Origin: Amoebidium appalachense
Taxonomy: Eukaryota > Protista > Ichthyosporea
Length of the DNA: 19,617 nucleotides
Direction: 5' to 3'
Assembly (NCBI GenBank): GCA_963693365.1
Contig: CAVNZM010000067.1
Location: 1 to 19,617, forward strand
Below are positions 3,577-18,108 of this stretch, in pieces. Both the position numbers and the translations under genes were made by a program. Each line of letters opens with the position of its first letter. Position 1 is the stretch's first letter. The notes under the pieces are model-generated. The model saw nothing but the letters and a program-made list of their open reading frames with translations, made no database searches and had not been told where the DNA came from.

Positions 3577-4560
3577 CCACCTAAGTACACTCTGCACCAC
3601 CCTAAGTACACTGTGGTGCACAGCCCCACCCTAAGTACACGTCTGCACCACCCTAAGTACACTGTGGTGCACAGCCCCACCCTAAGTACACGTCTGCACC
3701 ACCCTAAGTACACTGTGGTGCACAGCCCCACCCTAAGTACACGTCTGCACCACCCTAAGTACACCTCTGCACCACCCTAAGTACACGTCTGCACCACCCT
3801 AAGTACACCTCTGCACCACCCTAAGTACACCTCTGCACCACCCTAAGTACACCTCTGCACAGCCCTAAGTACACCTCTGCACCACCCTAAGTACACTCTG
3901 CACCACCCTAAGTACACCTCTGCACAGCCCTAAGTACACCTCTGCACCACCCTAAGTACACGTCTGCACCACCCTAAGTACACCTCTGCACAGCCCCACC
4001 CTAAGTACACCTCTGCACCACCCTAAGTACACCTCTGCACAGCCCTAAGTACACCTCTGCACCCACCCTAAGTACACTCTGCACCACCCTAAGTACACCT
4101 CTGCACCGCCCTAAGTACACCTCTGCACCACCCTAAGTACACCTCTGCACCACCCTAAGTACACCTCTGCACAGCCCCACCCTAAGTACACTCTGCACCA
4201 CCCTAAGTACACGTCTGCACCACCCTAAGTACACTCTGCACAGCCCCACCCTAAGTACACTCTGCACCACCCTAAGTACACTCTGCACCACCCTAAGTAC
4301 CTCTACACCATCCTAAGTACACGTCTGCACAGCCCCACCCTTTAAGTACACGTCTGCACAGCCCCACCCTTTAAGTACACGTCTACACCATCCTAAGTAC
4401 ACGTCTGCACAGCCCCACCCTTTAAGTACACGTCTGCACAGCCCCACCCTTTAAGTACACGTCTGCACCATCCTAAGTACACGTCTGCACAGCCCCACCC
4501 TTTAAGTACACGTCTGCACAGCCCCACCCTAAGTACACTCAATGTTAAGTACACCTGCAC
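3577..4560. repeat. ~1-kb minisatellite of roughly 40 variable 21-29-bp units, consensus CCACCCTAAGTACACCTCTGCA
   Basis: TAAGTAC core recurs throughout. A 51-bp higher-order unit lies near the left end and CCCTTTAAG variants at the right end. Confidence 0.95.
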
Positions 4561-6727: not shown

Positions 6728-7030
6728 ACGTCCAAGCTTGATGAAAACAAACCCGTGGCTGCTAACCATTGGCCGGGTATAGATCTAACCAAAAAAGGAA
6801 GGCACAACAAATTAGTGCCCTGCACACGGAGCATGCCTATAGGCTGTTTAGACACCACACGTGTAGGGCACTGCCTCTTGGCACCAACCAGAAGAGGGTA
6901 GAAATCAGTGCCCTGCACACGGAGCATGCCTATAGGCTGTTTAGACACCACACGTGTAGGGCACTGCCTCTTGGCACCAACCAGAAGAGGGTAGAAATCA
7001 GTGCCCTGCACACGGAGCATGCCTATAGGC
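6728..7030. repeat. Right inverted repeat: 81-bp unique arm plus ~2.3 copies of a 93-bp variant of the 92-bp unit
   Basis: GTGCCCTGCACACGG at 6815, 6908 and 7001 (period 93). The array ends abruptly at 7030. Confidence 0.95.
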
Positions 7031-7310
7031 AGTGATGGGGTGAGTAGGATGAGTAGCTTGAGTACCTACTCATCTGGTCTCCCCCCGGGTGTTCCAATTT
7101 CCTTTTGGATTGAGATTTAGGTATACCCGTAGCCCACAGTAGATGAGTACGTACTCATCCTACTCATCCTACTCACTATATGACAATTGCATATTTTTAT
7201 ACCTAAAAAGGAAACCTTTACCATATTTGGTCGAGTAACATCTAGTGTGGGACACTTGTCTGTGTTACTCAGAATCAGTACCTTGAGTAAGATAATTATT
7301 GTTACTCAGT
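7030..7310. mobile_element. Possible DNA-transposon (hAT-like) terminus with GAGTA/TACTC subterminal motifs
   Basis: Starts CAGTGATGGGG at the point where the 93-bp array is cut. It has a 17-bp inverted repeat (7040-7056/7160-7176), an 18-bp perfect palindrome (7142-7159) and about ten GAGTA/TACTC motifs. Confidence 0.4.
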
Positions 7311-8637: not shown

Positions 8638-9919
8638 TTATTGTTTGGTTTCTGCGTCCATCGGATTGGTTTTCGCTTTAAACGGAGCCAATAGCCTCTC
8701 CATATCTTCCGACGAAACTAGCCTGCTGTACAGCACGCCAAGGTCTTGCGTCACCTCGTGCCAATCATAGAACAGGTACCCCATGCGGATGCGCCCGTCC
8801 TTGAACAGCGCGACGTAGTCTGTGTCTCGCACATGTCTGATGGCGACCGTGAGTGCCTCGAGCCTCTGCTTCATTGGAGCTCTGTGTTTTGCTGTCGACC
8901 TTGAATCCGTGTGGGTTGAACCGAATAAACATGGTCGGCACTTCGTGCGCAGATGCCTGGTTGAACATCCGCGCAACCTCACACGTGGTGTCATAAGCAC
9001 GGTGTTGGTCCTCGTCTACCTCTACAACCAGCACAAAAGTCCCAAAGTCGTAGTACAGATCCGGACGAGTGCGCTCTCCACAATCGTTTGGTACTACTTT
9101 GTCGTGGCTGGTGGGGGGGCCTATGAGGCCTGACACATGACGCAAAACCTTGATTTCTGGACGCGCCTCGGACCACTTGGCTCTACATGTGGATTGTGGG
9201 TCACAAGTGGCGCACAGATTTCCCCTCTTCTTCACGTGTGTCAGTGTGCACGCGGCGCAGAAGTAGCTCAGGTCACATAATCGGCAAAATATCTTCCGCT
9301 TCCCATGGTGGCAGAGCGCTGTGCCTCCACAAAACACACACCGCGCTTTTTGTTTTCCATGTTTGCAGTACCTTGTGCCCCCACACGACCTACAGTCAAA
9401 CTTGGTCTTACCATGTTTGCAAATCGCCTTTCCGTTGCATTCTTTACATCGGTCTCTCCGTTTACGATGTGGGCAGAGCGCTGGCCCTCCACAAAGCCCA
9501 CAGTAGACTTTACATTTGCCATGTTTACAAAAGCTCCTCCCACCACACCGTCTGCACCTGGCTTTCGGTTTCCCATGCGGGCACAATCCTGATCCACCGC
9601 ATGACTGGCAGAAGATTTTGCGTGCTCCATGCGGACACAGCTGCGATCCGCCACACCCCTTGCACAGAGGCCTATATCGACCGTGCGGGCACATTTGCTT
9701 CCCGCCGCAAGGTACGCAGATATATTTGCGCCTGCCGTGGGGGCAAAAGGTTGCCCCGTTGCATGCTTTACAAAAACTCCTCTTCTTCTCATGTGGACAC
9801 AGAGCAGATCCTCCACAGGTTTTGCAGTACCCTCTCGGTTTCCCGTGCTCGCATTTTCTGGTCCTAGGGCTGGGTCGGGGCTGCCTTTCGACCATACTGT
9901 CAATGTTAGCAGATGCCAT
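8638..9919 (-). CDS. Cys/His-repeat (11x18 aa, CxH-x6-CxxC) protein fused to a PD-(D/E)XK/Vsr-like endonuclease; one frameshift at 8887-8890
   Basis: The repeats are followed by RPDLYYD...VVEVDEDQH..Y...CE..RM...FIRFNP. The expected family tail (RL..L...I...YLFYD) lies in the 8638..9000 frame and joins at an A4 run. Confidence 0.8.
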
Positions 9920-10329: not shown

Positions 10330-10530
10330 CGCCATTCGATTGGATATCTCGCTAGATTACGCCTCACGCGCTGATTGGTCAGCCGCGATTGGATCGTAAA
10401 TATAAATTCCGATTGGATCATGTGGTTACATCTCATGGTAAGTAAATTTTGATTCCATCAGATAAATCATGTCCATCCAATCAAAACGCGACAGCTGTCA
10501 GCCTTGCCCTGCCTGGCAGGTATAAAATGC
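10330..10530 (+). promoter_or_regulatory. CCAAT cluster and TATA box upstream of 10586
   Basis: GATTGG near 10338, 10373, 10387 and 10411, CCAATC at 10477, TATAAAA at 10521-10527. Confidence 0.65.
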
Positions 10531-10585
10531 CGCGACTCAGCGCTATGCTGACACTTTCCACTCTTCCTGTTTCTCTTCACCAACA

Positions 10586-11062
10586 ATGTCCGGCACACCA
10601 TCTGCAAAGGCCGGCCCTGACCCAGCCGGGCAGCCTGCCAGTCCACGGCCCCCAGGGTCATTTGCCACGTGGCCTCCCGAATGGCAGCAGTACCTGTACG
10701 AGGAGGCAAAGCGTGACCGCTACCGTGCGCGCGCCAGCGAGCGGGAGATGCAGCTCAAGTACAAGTTGCTGCACAAGAAGTACAAGCGCCTCAAGACCAG
10801 CGTGAGCCTGTACCGTATGACATGGAGGAGCCTGAAGAACCTCAGCGACCCCGAGACCTCCGCCGAGGAGTCCCCCACCGAGGAGCGCCCCATTCGCATC
10901 TTGAGCTCCGAGGAGGAGCGCCTCCACAAGAAGCCCCCCGAGAAGAAGCGCGCGCGGTCGCCCGAGGACACTTCGGCGCCCACCGAGAAGAAGCGCGCGC
11001 GGTCGCCCGAGGACACTTCGGCGCCCACCGAGAAGCGCAGCCGTGCTGGACACGAGGAGTAA
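10586..11062 (+). CDS. Small basic helical protein with NLS-like KKRAR repeats (158 aa)
   Basis: ACAATG start and high GC3. A 45-bp tandem duplication encodes EKKRARSPEDTSAPT. AATAAA overlaps the stop (11062-11067). Confidence 0.75.
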   Translation: MSGTPSAKAGPDPAGQPASPRPPGSFATWPPEWQQYLYEEAKRDRYRARASEREMQLKYKLLHKKYKRLKTSVSLYRMTWRSLKNLSDPETSAEESPTEERPIRILSSEEERLHKKPPEKKRARSPEDTSAPTEKKRARSPEDTSAPTEKRSRAGHEE

Positions 11063-11402
11063 ATAAAAATTGCCACTTCCACTTCCACACCTGTGTTGTG
11101 GACCGTAGCGCTTGCATGCATGGTGCTGCTCGTGCTGGCGTGCTGGCACTCAGGGGGGGGGGGGGGGTCTTGTTGTTTGTGTTAATGCACCCACAGCGTG
11201 CCCTTTGTGACACTTGCAGTGGGTTGTTGTTGTTGCCTTTTACAACCACCGCTCTGGACACAAGATCGAACAGCTATCAAATTGACCATATATATGACAA
11301 AGAAAAACAAGGTTGCCAAAGATCATTGTAGCAGTGCGTCCTCCGTCTTGGCGCGCCCTACGTCCCAGCGGTTTTTAGGTTCCATTAGCACTGCGATGCA
11401 TA

Positions 11403-11720
11403 ATGTCTGTGTGTGCTCCCCGAGTTGCTGGGGAGGGGGCGCTCCAAACTATCTCTTCGGAAGGTATGACTTCTCCGAACATTGCAAACCTGAGATTTGA
11501 CAACCCGAGTAACTCGTGGTTGCGCAGGGATGACATTGCCGACGACCCGCACGAGTACCACCTGACCATCGACAACAACACGCGCTTCATGCTCTACATG
11601 GGCACTTCATTGGACGACCATGATGCACAGCTCAAGAGCGCTTCGATGTGGAGGGGCATAGCGCTTGCATGCATGGTGCTGCTCGTGCTGCTGGCCGGCC
11701 TGCTGGTGTACAGGTGGTAG
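11403..11720 (+). CDS. Small protein with a C-terminal transmembrane helix (tail-anchored type); the start may be 11466
   Basis: GIALACMVLLVLLAGLLVY at the extreme C-terminus, GC3 bias. Confidence 0.6.
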   Translation: MSVCAPRVAGEGALQTISSEGMTSPNIANLRFDNPSNSWLRRDDIADDPHEYHLTIDNNTRFMLYMGTSLDDHDAQLKSASMWRGIALACMVLLVLLAGLLVYRW

Positions 11721-11887
11721 GGGGGGGGGGGTGGGGGGGGGGGGGGGGGGGCACTATGATGGATTGTTGTTGAAGCCGTTGAACCGTTGAGGTCCGCGAG
11801 ATCACCCCACACACACACAGCCCGTCACACTTCTATTTTAAACAACCCCCCTTCAACAGCTTCAACAGCTTTAACTCTTCAACAGGG

Positions 11888-11895
11888 TATAAAAG
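11888..11895 (+). promoter_or_regulatory. TATA box TATAAAAG upstream of the helicase
   Basis: GGGTATAAAAG lies ~45 bp before ATG 11937 and has the same context as the TATA at 8139-8149 (minus). Confidence 0.6.
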
Positions 11896-11936
11896 GAACA
11901 TGCATGCTTTTTTTTCTTCAGTCTACTGTAAGCATC

Positions 11937-13388
11937 ATGAGAGCTCCACCATCTTATGATGCATTCGAAGACCTTTCGGTTGACCATAGCATGTTGTTTG
12001 ACCCCCACACATGTGTTCAACGCGCAAATTGGACTTTGGATGAGGTGTTTGCCTTTTTAAGCCCAAACATCGCATATGTCAGCAGGGAAGGTGCCTATCT
12101 GGTCAAGATTTATGACCAGGACACGAACCTGTACAAACACCATCGCAAGACAAAGGCTGCACTCCAAGAGTTTTTGGGAGCCTTTCTATTTCAGCTTGTT
12201 CCGCATGCAAACGGCAAACAGGATACGTACAACGGTGCAAACGTGTTGAAAACACCTTGCTTTCCATACTACACCTGTTTTGTTTTTGACCCGTCATCCC
12301 CAGACCCACGCACTGGAAACACGAAGCCAGCATACCTTGTCCCACGTTGCCGGGCATACAACATGTTCAAGGGATTGGCGCTACCCCACCAACCCGAGAA
12401 CGTTTCTTGGCAGTCAGGTTCTGTCTCCCTGTTCGAACGCCACGCCTTTGAGGTGCTTTGCAACAATGACCGGGAGAGCTTTCATTATCTGATGCAATGG
12501 GTCGCACACATCTTCCAGTATCCTGAAGTCAAGTCTGGCACAGCGATTCTCATGAGATCGATACAGGGAATAGGGAAAAACATCTGGTGGGAGATCATCG
12601 CCAACATCATTGGCAGTTGTTATTGTGGTTATATCACACACAGAGAGCATTTGGAGGGGAAGTTCAACGCGCATCTGGAGAACAAGCTACTGGTTGTGTG
12701 CGACGAAATGGGTCTTGGCAGTAACAGGGAAATTGCGAACCTGATGAAGGCTCGCATCACCCAGCAGGTGAACATGATAGAGCGAAAGGGGCAGGACGCT
12801 GTGTGTGTGAAGAGTTTCGAACGCTATGTCTGGCTTTCAAACGAGAAATGGCCCGTTCGGGTGGAGGAATCGGACCGTCGTTGGGTGTGCTTGCAGGGGA
12901 CCCCAGTGGTCTATCCAAGAGCCTACTACCAGAACTTTACACGGTTTTACGAAGACCCTGCAAACCTACAGGCTGTCTGTGACTACTTCATGAAGATGCC
13001 AAATGTTCCCCGTGTTCTTCCGCTTCCACCCAAGACTGAACTCTGGTGCGAACTGCGTGAAATGACACAGCCAGATGAACTCCTGTTTCTCAAAGATATG
13101 GCTACAGGCGCCGAGGGCATGTCTGTCGAGCAACTTCCCAATGGGGCCCGTGTTACAGCCACCACAATGCTGCATCTGTACAAGGAGTGGCTTTCACTCA
13201 ACGGCAAGACCAAGAGCATCCCGTACGCCAGTGTGAAGAGCATGGGCTCCATGCTCAGCAAGATACTTGGACCCAACAAGGGAGTGCGAAACAACCACCT
13301 GATTGTTGCCCCTGGGATGCCCGCGTTGTCCCCAACCGGAACGTCGTACGCTTTTTTGTTCGACTACGAGAAGATCAAACAGGCTTAG
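11937..13388 (+). CDS. Superfamily-3 (D5/NrS-1-like) helicase, 483 aa, with probable winged-helix C-terminus and no evident primase domain
   Basis: Pre-ATPase YNMFKG...VLCNND...YLMQWVAHIFQYP..KSG, Walker A SIQGIGKN, FN..LENKLLVVCDE (Walker B), IERKGQD, motif C VWLSNE, and SDRRW. Confidence 0.88.
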   Translation: MRAPPSYDAFEDLSVDHSMLFDPHTCVQRANWTLDEVFAFLSPNIAYVSREGAYLVKIYDQDTNLYKHHRKTKAALQEFLGAFLFQLVPHANGKQDTYNGANVLKTPCFPYYTCFVFDPSSPDPRTGNTKPAYLVPRCRAYNMFKGLALPHQPENVSWQSGSVSLFERHAFEVLCNNDRESFHYLMQWVAHIFQYPEVKSGTAILMRSIQGIGKNIWWEIIANIIGSCYCGYITHREHLEGKFNAHLENKLLVVCDEMGLGSNREIANLMKARITQQVNMIERKGQDAVCVKSFERYVWLSNEKWPVRVEESDRRWVCLQGTPVVYPRAYYQNFTRFYEDPANLQAVCDYFMKMPNVPRVLPLPPKTELWCELREMTQPDELLFLKDMATGAEGMSVEQLPNGARVTATTMLHLYKEWLSLNGKTKSIPYASVKSMGSMLSKILGPNKGVRNNHLIVAPGMPALSPTGTSYAFLFDYEKIKQA

Positions 13389-13399
13389 CCATTCCCCAA

Positions 13400-13540
13400 C
13401 GCTGCGCGGGGGCATGGGGGGCTGGGGGTGGCTGGGGGTGGCACACAGGGCATGGGGCCGGGGAGGAAGAGGAGGCACAGTGGTCTCACGGGCAGCACGA
13501 GGCAGGCGAGCCACGCATGCCCCTCACAGCCCCTCAGGAA
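13400..13540. repeat. GC-rich quasi-palindromic intergenic repeat, copy 1
   Basis: GGGGCATG (13409-13416) pairs with CATGCCCC (13516-13523). The 20-mer AGGCACAGTGGTCTCACGGG at 13473 is identical to 17433. Confidence 0.7.
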
Positions 13541-13613
13541 CCAACAGATGCTAGCTATAGGGGGGGGGGTACTTAAGCAGACCCGGGTTCATTTTCTCCC
13601 CATTCTTTCTACA

Positions 13614-14114
13614 ATGGACAACATGGACGATCTATACATGCAGATCGCCGCGGACATGTCCGAGAACGAGCAGCGCAAACTGGCGACATACGAAGAGTTT
13701 GAGCGGACAACAGGCACGCGCAACAACTGGTTGGACGCAGACATTGTCGAGAATTACGAGTGGACCGAGGAGCAGATCCACACGTTCTGTCGTACACTAG
13801 TGGCTTATTCCCGCCCGGACGGTGTGTACCTCTTCAAGCGTTTCAAGGATGGGAGATTCGTCCATGAGGTCAAGTCCAAGAAGAAGGTGGCCGACATGCT
13901 GTCCAAGTACAAGTTCAAATACAACCCGACGGGCAAAAAGGTGGAAACATACAAGGGCTCATGGCATCTGGACAGCAGCCAAATGGTCGTCTACGACGGT
14001 GGTATTGTTTTCGACCCCAGCGACCCCGACCCCAAGACCCGTGTCCGTAACCAGCGATACACGTCTACCCACAGCCGTACGTTCAACACTGCGGGGGCGC
14101 CTGGGGGGCCCTGA
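13614..14114 (+). CDS. Stand-alone paralog of the helicase N-terminal domain (166 aa)
   Basis: WTEEQIHTFCRTLVAYSRPDGVYLFK matches WTLDEVFAFLSPNIAYVSREGAYLVK, VFDPSDPDPKT matches VFDPSSPDPRT, and RTFN matches RAYN. ACAATGG start. Confidence 0.75.
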   Translation: MDNMDDLYMQIAADMSENEQRKLATYEEFERTTGTRNNWLDADIVENYEWTEEQIHTFCRTLVAYSRPDGVYLFKRFKDGRFVHEVKSKKKVADMLSKYKFKYNPTGKKVETYKGSWHLDSSQMVVYDGGIVFDPSDPDPKTRVRNQRYTSTHSRTFNTAGAPGGP

Positions 14115-14190
14115 GGGGCATGCGAGGCACGCGAGGCCCGCGAGGCACGTGTGCCACGGGAGCCACCCACAGCCCCTCAAGCCCTCACTG
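14091..14190. repeat. GC-rich quasi-palindromic intergenic repeat, copy 2
   Basis: TGAGGGGC (14112-14119) pairs with GCCCCTCA (14172-14179). Internal (GCGAGGC[A/C]C)x3. Confidence 0.75.
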
Positions 14191-14244
14191 GTATGCACAG
14201 CATCGGGTGTCGTGGCTTGTATATTTTTTCTAGCGCCAACTACA

Positions 14245-14940
14245 ATGGCTAGCACGCTGTGTGACGAAGGTTTGGTGAGGGACCGACTTATGCGACTGGA
14301 GGGTGGGAAGAGCGAGGTGCATACTCCCGCCGGTAGGATCGACCTGCTGACGGACACAGAAGTCATTGAAGTAAAGAAGGTTCAACGTTGGAAATCGGCA
14401 ATGGGGCAGGTGCTTGCATACACAGATTACTACCCCACCCACCGTGCACGAGTCCATCTATATGGCTACGCCCCCGCCAACACATACAAGGTAGCTGTGG
14501 AAACCATGATGCGCCATAACATTACCGTCACCACCGAGCATGATACACTGCAGCATATGTGGGGTCCACTCGCCAAAGCAGAAACTGCAAAACCCAAGAA
14601 TGCCCAGCAGAAACAAGCCGAACAGCAATTTTTAAAAGATTTGGTCTCTCATACCAATGGATGTGAGGACATGACTTTCATAAAGGATGACTGCCGCGTG
14701 ACTTCATCTGACCTGTACCAACTATACCTTTCGTGGCATAAACGGAATACTTCTAACACAGCTACTCCAAGTTTGAAAATCTTTGGCGTAAACCTCAGGA
14801 AGATTCTGGGAAAACCTATCGGCGTCAAAGCAAAAAGGGTGACGCGCTGGCCAGACCACCCACGTGTGTCTGAAACAAACAATGTTCTGTATTGCTACAG
14901 GATCGACAGCCAGGTCATTAACAGCCAGGAGCAGTCGTGA
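14245..14940 (+). CDS. PD-(D/E)XK nuclease fused to a helicase-type C-terminal (winged-helix-like) domain, 231 aa
   Basis: N-terminus EVHTPAGRIDLLT..EVIEVK....WKSAMGQVLAY. The C-terminal EQQFLKDL, RVTSSDLYQLYLSW and SLKIFGVNLRKILG match helicase ELLFLKDM, RVTATTMLHLYKEW and SVKSMGSMLSKILG. Confidence 0.8.
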   Translation: MASTLCDEGLVRDRLMRLEGGKSEVHTPAGRIDLLTDTEVIEVKKVQRWKSAMGQVLAYTDYYPTHRARVHLYGYAPANTYKVAVETMMRHNITVTTEHDTLQHMWGPLAKAETAKPKNAQQKQAEQQFLKDLVSHTNGCEDMTFIKDDCRVTSSDLYQLYLSWHKRNTSNTATPSLKIFGVNLRKILGKPIGVKAKRVTRWPDHPRVSETNNVLYCYRIDSQVINSQEQS

Positions 14941-14972
14941 TGGAATTTATTTTCTCCCACTTCTGTAACACA

Positions 14973-15218
14973 ATGTTCCTGTGCACGTGCCGGTCTGACC
15001 GAGGCGCTGTCATGGTCAAGGAGTATAAGGTGTATCGGTGCACAGTCGACGGCTGCAGCTATTTCACCACCCGCAACAGCAACTTTGCCGCGCACAGCGA
15101 CAAGCACACAGGCGCCCTGCGACACGTGTGCACGCATGCAGGGTGCGGGCGGCAGTTTCGGTATGCTCTGAGCCTCAAGCGGCACACCGCCAAGCACCAG
15201 AGCCCAACCCAAACCTAG
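14973..15218 (+). CDS. Two-finger C2H2 zinc-finger protein (alternative start 14940)
   Basis: YRCTVDGC...F..H...HTGALRHVCTHAGCGRQF.....LKRH...H, with a Kruppel-like HTG linker. ACAATG at 14973. Confidence 0.8.
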   Translation: MFLCTCRSDRGAVMVKEYKVYRCTVDGCSYFTTRNSNFAAHSDKHTGALRHVCTHAGCGRQFRYALSLKRHTAKHQSPTQT

Positions 15219-15305
15219 CGCCCAGGCCCGCGAGGCCCGCGAGGCACGCGAGGCACGTGCGCCACAGGAGCCCCCCCAGGCCCCCAGGCCCCCAGGCCCC
15301 AGCCC
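15219..15305. repeat. GC-rich intergenic repeat, copy 3, between convergent genes
   Basis: GCGAGGCCCGCGAGGCACGCGAGGCACGTGCGCCACAGGAGCCCC, followed by CCCCAGG repeats. Confidence 0.7.
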
Positions 15306-15352
15306 GGATGGGTGACCGAGGACGACAGATATGGACCCGACTCGGGGTGGGT

Positions 15353-16228
15353 TTATTGACGCGCCGCGGCGGCCCAGGCAGCAAACGCCGTGCGGCCATC
15401 CGCAAGCGCCTGCGCGACCTTCCCGGGGTCGACGTCCATGGGCGACGCAAACAGCCTCCGCTCTGGAGCGACCACCACGAGGCGGTCTCCGAGGCGGGTG
15501 CGGAGGTTGGCGAACTCGGTGGCCGCTAGCTCGGTGCCCGAGTCACGCTGCAGAGCATAGCAGAGCTCCATGCCCGTTTTTGGCACGGATTCTGCGGGGC
15601 AGTGCGCCAGCGAGTCGCACAGCACCGTGACGTAGATGCCGTCGAACCCATCTGCGGCATCCTCGAGTGCCTTGGTGAGGGGCACCAGCTCAGAGACCCC
15701 GCCGTCCAGAAACACGGTGCCGTCGTACTCGACGGGGGGGACCGCGAGTGGAAGGGCCGAAGACGCGCGCATGCCGACCTGGTACTCGGGCCCTGTGAAC
15801 CACCGCTCCTTCTTGTTGAGGAAGTCCCAGGCGACGCAGTGGCAGCGCGTGTAGATGTCCGCGTCGATGCCCTCCAGAAGCGCCGCCGCACGCTCCTGCA
15901 GGGTGAAGCGGCTGTACGCCGCCCCGTACAGCATTGACCCCACAACCGTCCTCCAGCTTTTCGGAAGCAGCGCCATTGCGCCGCCCCACGGTTCCACAAT
16001 GTCCTCCACGCACTTCAGCGTCCCCAGCTCGCGCGCCAGGTCGTCCAGGCGGTCGGCAACCACGAACGGCGCCACCAGCGCGCCGACGGACGTGCCGTAC
16101 ACCCTGTCGACCTGGTACAGCCCCGACGCGAGCATCCCCTGCATGAACCCGACTTGGAAGCAGCCCTTGACGCCGCCCCCGGGCAGCAGGATCCGCACAC
16201 GTGTCCTGGCTTGGGAGGGTGTGTCCAT
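15353..16228 (-). CDS. Patatin-like phospholipase
   Basis: GGGVKG oxyanion loop, GTSVG nucleophile, ASSALP and FLDGG catalytic Asp. AACATGG start; AATAAA overlaps the stop. Confidence 0.93.
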   Translation of the reverse strand: MDTPSQARTRVRILLPGGGVKGCFQVGFMQGMLASGLYQVDRVYGTSVGALVAPFVVADRLDDLARELGTLKCVEDIVEPWGGAMALLPKSWRTVVGSMLYGAAYSRFTLQERAAALLEGIDADIYTRCHCVAWDFLNKKERWFTGPEYQVGMRASSALPLAVPPVEYDGTVFLDGGVSELVPLTKALEDAADGFDGIYVTVLCDSLAHCPAESVPKTGMELCYALQRDSGTELAATEFANLRTRLGDRLVVVAPERRLFASPMDVDPGKVAQALADGRTAFAAWAAAARQ

Positions 16229-16260
16229 GTTGATGTAGGGCGCGATAAAAGTCGACGGCT

Positions 16261-17058
16261 TCATTCCAAATCCAGGGCGTTGCACACCGAGACCAGGTTT
16301 GCCCTTGCGCAGTCCAGCACGAAGGCCGCCAGCTCGGAGTAGTCGTGGGGGGGCGGCTGGCTCTGCGCGGCCAGCAGCAGCGAGTGGTAGCGCTCGCGGG
16401 AGCTGCGGTCTGTGTACAACGAGAGAGGAACGGCAATATAGGGCGAGAGCAGCACGCTGACCAACAGACGGGCGACGCGCCCGTTGCCGGTGCTGAACGG
16501 GTGGATGTAGAGGAACTCCCCGAGGAAACGGGCGGTGACCTGTATGGCACCGAGAACGTCATTGCAGCCTTGGAGTTCGGTGCGTGTCCTTTCGAACAGA
16601 CGCTTGAGAGCCTCTTCGATCTTGAACGGTGCAAGGTACTGATGACTGCAGCCTGCGGGAAGCGCAAAGCGCACCCGATACCGTCCAGCGCTATCGAGCA
16701 GCCCGTCCATGACCTTGCGATGGACCTCCCTAGCGAGCTCCACCGTAAACGTGCCCGGATCAATCCCCTTCCAAACCCACGGTGTGGGGAACAGCTCGCG
16801 AACTGCTATAACGACGTTTTTCAGTTTCTTCGATGAGCGCGTGTGTTCGGACGTTTCATCGGGGCAGGAGATCAGCCTCTCAATATGTTCGACTGGGACC
16901 TTTTCGTTTATTTCCAATTCCATCAGGTGCTTGATGTATAACACTAGGTGGTGCGTTGTGTATCCCTGCATGAACAAAGCGCTGCTCTTATCGTTATCCA
17001 AAAACGTGCGCACCAGGTGGAGGCAGCGCACAACCGCCCCTTCGCTGAGTTGAGACAT
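16261..17058 (-). CDS. Fic/Fido domain protein
   Basis: FLYIHPFSTGNGRVARLL, with upstream REVHRKVM....AGRYR. Start placed at the first ATG (MSQLSE), which is uncertain. Confidence 0.9.
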   Translation of the reverse strand: MSQLSEGAVVRCLHLVRTFLDNDKSSALFMQGYTTHHLVLYIKHLMELEINEKVPVEHIERLISCPDETSEHTRSSKKLKNVVIAVRELFPTPWVWKGIDPGTFTVELAREVHRKVMDGLLDSAGRYRVRFALPAGCSHQYLAPFKIEEALKRLFERTRTELQGCNDVLGAIQVTARFLGEFLYIHPFSTGNGRVARLLVSVLLSPYIAVPLSLYTDRSSRERYHSLLLAAQSQPPPHDYSELAAFVLDCARANLVSVCNALDLE

Positions 17059-17213
17059 CACGGTGTTGAACCGACAGATAAAGTACCACAAACTATCAAA
17101 ATCGACCTTTACGTCACACGGCAACAACCCGGCCCATATCCACCTGCGCGTTCACCACCCTGTTCTCCTGCCCCCGCCCCCTACCCAGTCCACCGATTTC
17201 TCCACAAACCAGA

Positions 17214-17355
17214 GAGAACACGGCAGTGCCCATGAACGTTTGGCCCGCATTTTGCTAGAGAACAGCATCGCCGGTCCCCCCCATGTCTCCCGGAACCCAA
17301 GAGAACACCATGGCATCCCCAACCATGTCTCCCGGATCCTTGGAGAACAGGTGCC
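17214..17355. repeat. Degenerate ~43-bp tandem repeat, about four copies
   Basis: GAGAACA at 17214, 17258, 17301 and 17343. CCATGTCTCCCGGA occurs twice. Confidence 0.65.
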
Positions 17356-17394
17356 GGGGGTGGACCCTGTTCGCCGATTGCTTTTTCCTAGGAG

Positions 17395-17485
17395 CGGGGC
17401 CTGGGGGGCATGAGGGGCACGCGAGGCACGGAAGGCACAGTGGTCTCACGGGTCTGTGTGCCACAGGCGCCCCCCCAGCCCCCGG
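17395..17485. repeat. GC-rich quasi-palindromic intergenic repeat, copy 4
   Basis: CCTGGGGGGCATGAGGGGCACGCGAGGCAC resembles copy 2, the 20-mer is shared with copy 1, and GTGTGCCACAGG leads into a C-rich tail. Confidence 0.7.
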
Positions 17486-18108
17486 AACAGGCAACGCGGA
17501 ACCACAACTTCGTTCCAAAGCAGCGCCAGATGTGCCAATAAACGGCCAAAGCAGCGCGCAGTTGGCTACCCCGCTATTCGATCTGATTGGTCGAAAGCGT
17601 TCAAGATCCTGACCAAGGTTTCAGAATCTGTTTGTAATCGTTGAAAGGACTATTTCTTCGCGATTTCTATTAGAAATGTGACCGAATTGTTTATAAAACT
17701 ACCTTGAATATGAAATTGGGTATAAAACGTTTGATTTTATTCGTATGTTTGGTTCTAAGGGATAGAAGAGAAAAAGCCATCAGCTGTCATTGAAAAATCT
17801 TGAAGCACTGGCATTGCCTGCTCTTCGCGGGATCTGATTGGATCTTGAATTGGGTGTGATCCAATCCCCAGCAGCCAATCGTGCAGTTTGGTGATCTGGA
17901 TCTGAAAGCATTCTCCCAATCAAACGCGTGACTGGATATCATTTCGTCAGCATCAGTTGGGAATTGGCTTCTAAGGGCATGGCACAGCTGATAGGGTGTC
18001 ACTTTCACACACCTTCTGTAGTGTCAACATCAAAGGCTTTGAAGTCGCTTGTTAGGTCGCCTTTTACTGATTTTTCGCTTTGCACCCCCATTTCTACACA
18101 CACACACC

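Follow-up and report, generated by a model that had tools for sequence, protein, structure and literature searches.

Gene Content of the Locus

The stretch of DNA analysed here (the window) comprises 19,617 nucleotides (nt) of the ichthyosporean Amoebidium appalachense (contig CAVNZM010000067.1). Genes and repeats are dense in it, TATA boxes precede several ATGs by about 50-60 nt, and a Pfam scan found C2H2, patatin, and Fic genes in it. Three open reading frames (ORFs) that follow one another on the forward strand are the subject of this report: a helicase gene, an ORF encoding a stand-alone helicase N-terminal domain (N-ORF), and a gene in which a nuclease is fused to a helicase-type winged helix (the fusion gene). 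A sequence-only reading had taken N-ORF and the fusion gene for the two parts of a split paralog of the helicase, in which a repeat and a nuclease replaced the ATPase core. The order, strand, and coordinates given there hold (Table 1). Several diverged versions of the stretch are present in contigs of six public sequencing runs (X2, X5, X8, X16, X18, and X19) that were compared with the window, and we infer that it belongs to a multi-copy element of the eukaryotic DNA virus type.

Table 1. Coordinates of the genes, domains, and repeats at the locus (window positions)
Feature	Position	Strand	Remarks
Primase-less D5-type (DUF5906, SF3) helicase, 483 aa	11937..13388	+	N-domain 1-146, ATPase core, winged helix ~381-480
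GC repeat copy 1	13396..13548	+	Starts ~8 nt after the helicase stop; fold z -0.18
N-ORF, 166 aa: free-standing N-domain, likely the collar, from another type of helicase	13614..14114	+	Last 8 residues and stop from the repeat
GC repeat copy 2	14085..14196	+	Where this allele leaves the N-domain; supplies the last N-ORF residues and TGA
Fusion gene, 231 aa	14245..14940	+	Filled by the two domains below
PD-(D/E)XK nuclease domain of the fusion gene	14245..14544	+	Residues ~7-100; motif D33/E42/K44/Q55/Y59
Winged-helix domain (D5-type) of the fusion gene; nearest relative: helicase P0064	14605..14940	+	Identity, Atlas, fold, wing motif
C2H2 zinc-finger ORF overlapping the fusion stop	14937..15218	+	Pfam zf-C2H2 E 6e-4, under the cut-off
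GC repeat copy 3	15219..15300	+	Directly after the zinc-finger stop
GC repeat copy 4	17392..17492	+	

The helicase belongs to the D5-type superfamily 3 (SF3) and has a DUF5906 ATPase domain and a C-terminal winged helix. It matches Pfam DUF5906 at E 1e-19 (71 bits; cut-off 27.6), has the Walker A motif GIGKN and the Walker B motif VVCDE, and its family profile matches the NrS-1 helicase (6k9c) at E 2e-33. Its C-terminus is homologous to the C-terminal domain of the fusion protein, which is modelled as a winged helix. A TATA box lies upstream at 11888. No primase is fused to it: the approximately 145 residues before the core match the N-domain family and no primase family, and no primase domain was found in the 483-residue protein or among the 20 ORFs scanned in the window. 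The nearest named relatives of the family are on a 183-kb contig of Daphnia sinensis and a 1.2-kb contig of Daphnia pulex. Related proteins are labelled P00xx below, and L001 denotes 21 kb read from a 183-kb contig, or the helicase encoded there.

The Nuclease-Winged-Helix Fusion Gene

The fusion protein was modelled with a mean predicted local distance difference test (pLDDT) of 86.6, from an alignment that contains one short misplaced stretch, and consists of a PD-(D/E)XK domain (residues 7-104) and a winged helix (residues 118-231). Its pLDDT is mostly above 90 in the nuclease domain, where the motif is intact (D33, E42-x-K44, and Q55-x3-Y59); the catalytic residues D33, E42, and K44 are also found in P0041 and P0004. 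The nuclease model superimposes on AF1548 (1y88; Z 9.5, root mean square deviation (rmsd) 3.2, 93 aligned residues) and on NucS (2vld; Z 8.4, rmsd 2.5, 89 aligned residues). By its modelled fold, the N-terminal part is a PD-(D/E)XK nuclease of the restriction-endonuclease-like type, as the earlier reading proposed, and DNA cleavage is predicted. The domain matches giant-virus proteins in BFVD at E 6e-9 to 1e-6, four of the top six being annotated KilA-N or 'N domain'; the fusion chain itself contains no KilA-N domain. Local identity to the 17 other matches of the nuclease family is 46-64%, and ten of them carry helix-turn-helix (HTH)-type Pfam domains. In a second reference stretch, L002, the same nuclease family stands behind another domain, which we take to be MSV199.

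Homology of the nuclease part to the helicase core was considered and rejected, as the BLAST alignment is an overextension: against nine of nine helicases the part scores like shuffled sequence (138-486 of 500 shuffles reach its score). Scans of viral contigs with the helicase, N-ORF, and fusion sequences and with the N-domain alignment found no relative; the fusion alignment hit two loci, in the nuclease domain only. Metagenome scans gave no match, a sequence search of the PDB with the fusion alignment gave one chance match only, and a Foldseek search of the PDB gave nothing at E < 0.001. A second, stand-alone PD-(D/E)XK copy with an intact motif, 44% identical to the fusion nuclease, lies at 2-457 of the window on the forward strand.

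The C-terminal part, about 105 residues, matches the winged-helix end of the helicase, as had been claimed. Residues ~127-226 share 33 of 96 positions with residues 381-480 of the helicase, a match that none of 2000 shuffles reached. The two winged helices of the window are only 26% identical, and the closest relative of the fusion domain is another one. It scores 253 against P0064 (49% local identity), 143 against L001, and 97 against the neighbouring helicase. The wing motif W-x-x-H-P occurs in three of the 12 proteins checked, namely, the fusion protein, P0041, and P0064, and is missing from L001. A sister relationship with the neighbouring helicase was rejected in the approximately unbiased (AU) test (p 0.023). 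Pfam PF03288 (Pox_D5) gives 16.5 bits against a cut-off of 21.4, Pox_D5 clusters of the ESM Atlas match the domain at 0.95-0.96, and the model resembles the winged helices of ORC/Cdc6 and RFX5 (Z 5.6-6.2).

One of the 18 nuclease-family matches, P0041, spans both domains. It is 39% identical to the fusion protein over 93% of the length (nuclease 55%, winged helix 33%), and its winged helix also scores best against P0064 (131; next 112). The longest contig listed is 7,624 bp for both P0041 and P0064, which thus probably share a contig; a comparable helicase-fusion pair is therefore probable elsewhere. The three-gene module of the sequence-only reading is doubtful as a fixed unit, as copies join the parts differently. 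Downstream, a C2H2 zinc-finger ORF overlaps the fusion stop. A diverged copy in X16 and X18 keeps the two ORFs in line, and the zinc-finger ORF probably travels with the fusion gene. Upstream, the fusion reading frame is open for 141 codons before its ATG, through repeat 2 and the end of N-ORF (13822-14940, +).

Since a full-length homolog exists elsewhere and variants are mostly synonymous, the fusion is likely an old, selected gene. No description of a D5 winged helix joined to a nuclease, or of a free collar, was found in the literature, mostly openly accessible papers. The fusion is the firmest new item at this locus and founds a small new family with two known members.

The Stand-Alone N-Domain

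N-ORF matches residues 2-142 of the helicase with 38 of 142 positions identical (27%, E 3e-13) and a score of 129, a value that none of 2000 shuffles reached (maximum 54); the match proposed from the letters is thus real. The resemblance is confined to the protein level. At the DNA level, neither N-ORF (best local score 25) nor the fusion gene (23) is similar to the helicase. The ACAATGG start context stands before both ORFs (three occurrences on the forward strand of the window); it is not found before the helicase, whose start context is GCATCATG.

The closest relative of N-ORF is the N-domain of helicase L001 (60-62% identity), compared with 27-28% for the neighbouring helicase. Nonsynonymous divergence from L001 (dN) is 0.30, and synonymous divergence (dS), about 2.5, is nearly saturated. 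In the N-domain tree, N-ORF falls in a clade with L001 and P0059 (support 98/99), and AU tests rejected a grouping with the neighbouring helicase (p 0.003) or with P0064 (p 0.007). Because of this placement, N-ORF is assigned by its trees to a second helicase type. L001 itself groups in the core tree with P0061 and P0069 (94/93), and in these three helicases N-E or Q-E replaces the usual D-E of Walker B, a change hinting at a weak or altered ATPase.

A profile of four N-domains gave 14 matches among 1.84 billion representatives, 11 of them carrying the ATPase core. The other three were a 170-residue gene model, a 109-residue piece on a short contig, and a spurious repeat protein, so that no other clear stand-alone N-domain stood among the 14. 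The gene model, P0005, is also the sole match of N-ORF in the 90% database. It was rejected as a stand-alone N-domain, being a spliced model over a full-length helicase with one frameshift (L001:9968-11466). The spurious match, P0067, is a repetitive plant protein and was likewise discarded. An alignment of 15 N-domains ends at N-x-F-x-G, directly before the ATPase domain in the homologs. The structural model of N-ORF has a pLDDT of 60; three of 22 structural rows are D5-type collars, all weak matches (7ola, Z 2.7; 8apl, Z 2.4, residues 323-404; 8hwa, Z 2.2). N-ORF had no match in the ESM Atlas, and its model none in BFVD at E < 0.001.

GC Repeats and Variable Gene Order

Four GC repeats border the genes and begin just 3' of stop codons. 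Copy 2 begins at ~14085-14089, within the end of N-ORF, and the claim that this repeat supplies the stop of N-ORF proved right. Contigs of four of four runs leave the window at 14088 (3, 3, 2, and 2 contigs). Past this point their consensus, which mixes contigs agreeing at only ~0.7, continues in frame with S-F-Q-G, the closing motif of the N-domain, and then D-Q-S-K or H-A-S-K. In contrast, 13 of 13 helicases have a hydrophobic G-[FLM]-x-[FYIL] after the closing motif. Some copies thus appear not to run from the N-domain into an ATPase. A more L001-like paralog in X5 and X18 runs on for at least 255 letters.

Other junctions also lie at the repeats. An X8 contig has repeat 2 and the first codons of the fusion gene unchanged behind other sequence, and an X2 contig joins 13483 to 15349. 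Joints between repeats, four of them with at least 31 letters on the short side, include 13483-15349 and 15300-16261. The end of N-ORF varies between copies, and there are copies that seem to lack the fusion cassette. The repeats may therefore be exchange points. Since the genes are bordered by GC repeats and arranged differently in other copies, the order of the three looks unfixed. Integron cassette arrays are marked by attC-type sites that fold and by a tyrosine recombinase. In a check for integron-like cassettes, the repeats folded no better than shuffles (z -0.18 to -1.28) and no recombinase match was found in the window; a profile of the GC repeat found nothing in L001-L003.

Selection on the Three ORFs

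Variants among the copies were taken from 40 of 406 and 40 of 281 rows, and ten rows private to X19 were dropped, as this run has an excess of C>T/G>A changes like that of chemical conversion. Each variant was scored alone, although three fall in one N-ORF codon. Against the 21-22% of sites that are synonymous, 20 of 27 listed variants in the helicase (p 1e-8), 8 of 17 in N-ORF (p 0.015), and 8 of 13 in the fusion gene (p 0.003) were synonymous. A fusion copy about 14% diverged has no gap over ~500 nt; a few small deletions occur at 14253-14258 in X5 and X8. Both ORFs had been thought intact despite their divergence. With this synonymous bias and the full-length fusion homolog outside, they look like maintained genes rather than a decaying duplicate. 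The variant rows describe the history of the family and not the present use of this allele.

Two Genes of Probably Different Ancestry

The proposal of one split paralog of the adjacent helicase is not supported by the data. Parts of one split gene would have a common nearest relative and a common age, and neither was found. Both parts were rejected as sisters of the adjacent helicase (AU p 0.003 and 0.023). N-ORF is identical to L001 at 93 of 155 positions (60%) and the fusion winged helix at 34 of 105 (32%; Fisher p 1.5e-5); against P0064 the order is reversed (27% and 41%, p 0.03). Among seven pairs of helicases, the identities of N-domain and winged helix lie within 10 points in six. The exception is L001-P0064 (28% in the N-domain and 42% in the winged helix), which indicates that domain swaps occur among helicases. 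Third-position GC also differs between the parts (120/158 and 59/111, p 1e-4). The replacement of the ATPase core is not in register either: the end of the N-domain and the start of the winged helix lie 539 nt apart (717 nt in the helicase), and the fusion gene has its own leader and ATG within this gap. Descent of N-ORF and the fusion from a single parent gene is thus unlikely by these comparisons.

We lean towards two separate genes of different ancestry, set together by repeat-bounded shuffling, one predicted to cut the origin repeats of a helicase and the other a collar-like fragment. Shuffling between GC repeats would have placed an old nuclease-winged-helix gene beside the fragment. The C-terminal winged helix of P4 alpha and other D5 proteins binds the origin (PMC4889955), and SaPI Reps use theirs to bind iterons (PMC9371898). 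By analogy, the fusion winged helix may bind short origin repeats and bring the nuclease to them, where cutting is predicted. The earlier reading aimed the nuclease at the origin of the neighbouring helicase, which is doubtful because the two winged helices are only 26% identical. As the winged helix resembles that of P0064 rather than the neighbour's, the target would most likely be the origin of a related but different element, and the fusion protein might act as a competitor-cutting enzyme. More tentatively, N-ORF could be the remainder of a second helicase gene that stops at the boundary between collar and ATPase; any role that it has might be that of a decoy subunit, directed at helicases of its own type and not at the neighbour. 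The decoy idea, like the earlier suggestion that a free N-domain may poison helicase rings, is tempered by NrS-1, the closest solved relative, in which a head-ATPase construct lacking the tail is monomeric and a construct ending at the head does not bind single-stranded DNA (PMC7102993).

Several points weigh against this reading. The helicases are themselves mosaic, so the unseen parent of N-ORF could carry a fusion-like winged helix, and the difference in age could reflect accelerated change once the domains were fused. The grouping of the fusion with P0064 in the winged-helix tree is weak (81/63), and a grouping with L001 was not rejected (p 0.305). A single outside homolog of the fusion was found, and its placement beside P0064 rests on the equal 7,624-bp contigs. 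The joints are read from short ends of contigs close to repeats, at 80% likeness, and the variant rows, which stem from other copies, are a small fraction of the total. Finally, the winged helix of vaccinia D5 bears only a weak resemblance to RFX1 (PMC9611036), so that sequence-specific binding is not universal in the D5 family.

Alternative Explanations

The alternative with the best prospects, though one we would not bet on, concerns N-ORF and is compatible with the fusion having once been a real gene: N-ORF may be a functionless remnant and the stretch a silenced, rearranging endogenous element, its selection signal dating from ancestral active copies. The rarity of the free form fits (11 of the 14 profile matches have the core), as do a repeat-derived stop that differs among copies, a degenerate TATA position upstream of N-ORF, and the frameshift in L001's own helicase. 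On the other side, the continuations past F-Q-G in other copies are unlike the hydrophobic motif of the 13 helicases, and the N-domain may end at F-Q-G in copies about 17% apart that still have a synonymous bias. For the fusion, the main rival to a foreign target is initiation or resolution for its own element, in which it would nick its own origin or termini for a primer end or resolve replication products. We consider this unlikely. The helicases of the family mostly lack a primase, and no primase domain was seen in the window's 20 ORFs; P0041 has a winged helix that scores best against its likely contig neighbour P0064; and P0066 and P0072 carry an N-terminal extension instead. However, the two winged helices of the window share only 26% identity, copies seemingly without the cassette exist, and the 21 kb of L001 contain no such nuclease.

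A single ancestral gene could still be saved if the ATPase core had been swapped for a repeat and a nuclease and the halves had then diverged at different rates. Collinear order and strand, the lack of another copy of either domain in the six frames of the window, and the p of 0.305 for fusion plus L001 are in its favour. The unequal identity to the same helicase (60% and 32%), the differing third-position GC, the stand-alone fusion P0041, and the X8 contig with the fusion start behind another gene make it improbable. Least probable is that N-ORF and the fusion are exons, a splice between a donor at 14077 and an acceptor at 14233 removing repeat 2 and yielding one collar-nuclease-winged-helix mimic of the helicase. 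GTACGT at 14077 is the sole donor-like 6-mer on the forward strand within 10438-17743 (18 in the window), a pyrimidine run and TAG end 11 nt before the ATG, and the join is in frame. Yet this pattern was found after the fact, the donor-like word arises from codons of the conserved R-x-F-N motif, and a like acceptor word is in the helicase leader (two of nine leaders). No contig of the six runs, none of which is recorded as RNA, has such a joint, and an X18 contig spans 13901-14219 unbroken. We hold it to be very improbable. A broader view, speculative and distinctly unlikely as a whole, is that a family of eukaryotic viral elements turns its replicative helicase into conflict tools: a nuclease fusion that destroys the origins of sister elements and a motor-less collar decoy, both exchanged between copies as cassettes with GC repeats at their borders, and possibly spliced here into one helicase mimic.

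Relation to Known Systems

D5-family SF3 helicases, such as the C-terminal region of the NrS-1 polymerase (6k9c), vaccinia D5, SaPI Rep/PriRep5, and P4 alpha, likewise consist of a collar or head, a DUF5906 ATPase, and a C-terminal winged helix. The window helicase differs in having no fused primase, and in the window collar-like and winged-helix domains also occur outside the helicase. In giant viruses and bacteria, PD-(D/E)XK domains of the same family as that of the fusion accompany KilA-N, MSV199-like, and HTH domains. Unlike in these proteins, the nuclease of the fusion lies at the N-terminus and is joined to a winged helix derived from a helicase. A freed D5 winged helix has a precedent in the stand-alone Pox_D5 proteins of phages and prophages, which form Atlas clusters of 89-101 residues with Pox_D5 in 17-64% of the members; these are single-domain by size, and none is shown with a nuclease, unlike the fusion. 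Giant endogenous viral elements, adintoviruses, and Plavaka-flanked clusters in protists are also multi-copy, intron-poor, gene-dense, often truncated, and equipped with D5 genes (PMC11244446). In contrast, no capsid, packaging ATPase (A32), PolB, VLTF3, or recombinase was found among the 20 ORFs scanned in the 19.6-kb window.

Large DNA viruses commonly encode nucleases that DNA-binding domains direct to their targets. Aiming by the origin-binding domain of a replicative helicase would name the target, namely, the origin. The fusion thereby opens two questions to test, namely, the sites at which these primase-less helicases begin replication and a possible conflict over origins among related elements that share a nucleus. 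A maintained stand-alone collar, if true, would contradict the published expectation that the domain is not found without its ATPase. Should N-ORF prove to be a remnant, the fusion gene would keep its standing as a small new family with two known members.

Other Features of the Window and Its Relatives

A perfect 92-bp tandem array (9.6 copies) lies at 757-1720 and an inverted 93-bp array (2.4 copies) at 6728-7035. The two have a common unique flank (1452-1720 aligns with 6728-6998) and bracket about 5 kb like inverted arms, with a 22/29-bp array between them (3597-4538). Together, these arrays are a candidate origin or termini. The ORF at 8765-9919 on the reverse strand (384 residues) has many C-x-H-G cysteine repeats followed by a tail, PDL...VEVDE, and no Pfam or PHROG match; the tail is presumably nuclease-like. 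An X16 contig is ended by a poly(A) run at 11085, just 3' of an AATAAA behind the ORF at 10586-11062. Depth in X16 and X18 is piled at 10586-11085, and these runs, marked 'DNA?', may be RNA.

Intact patatin-like and Fic genes lie in tandem on the reverse strand at 15353-17127, between repeats 3 and 4. In X5 and X16 contigs, repeat 3 is joined to the end of the Fic gene without the patatin gene (15293-16261), which suggests that copies lacking it exist. The 183-kb contig of L001 encodes two helicases of the family (GHT06_003790 and GHT06_003869), and several helicase paralogs per element may be usual. Its 21 kb read here also contain cytosine methylase, GIY-YIG, and zinc-finger genes. The helicases P0066 (residues 1-143) and P0072 (residues 1-134) have a common N-terminal extension with no Pfam or PHROG match and with nothing similar in the window or L001. 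Its pattern, W-x-[FY]-x-I and H-x-[HE], we take to be reminiscent of HUH nickases.

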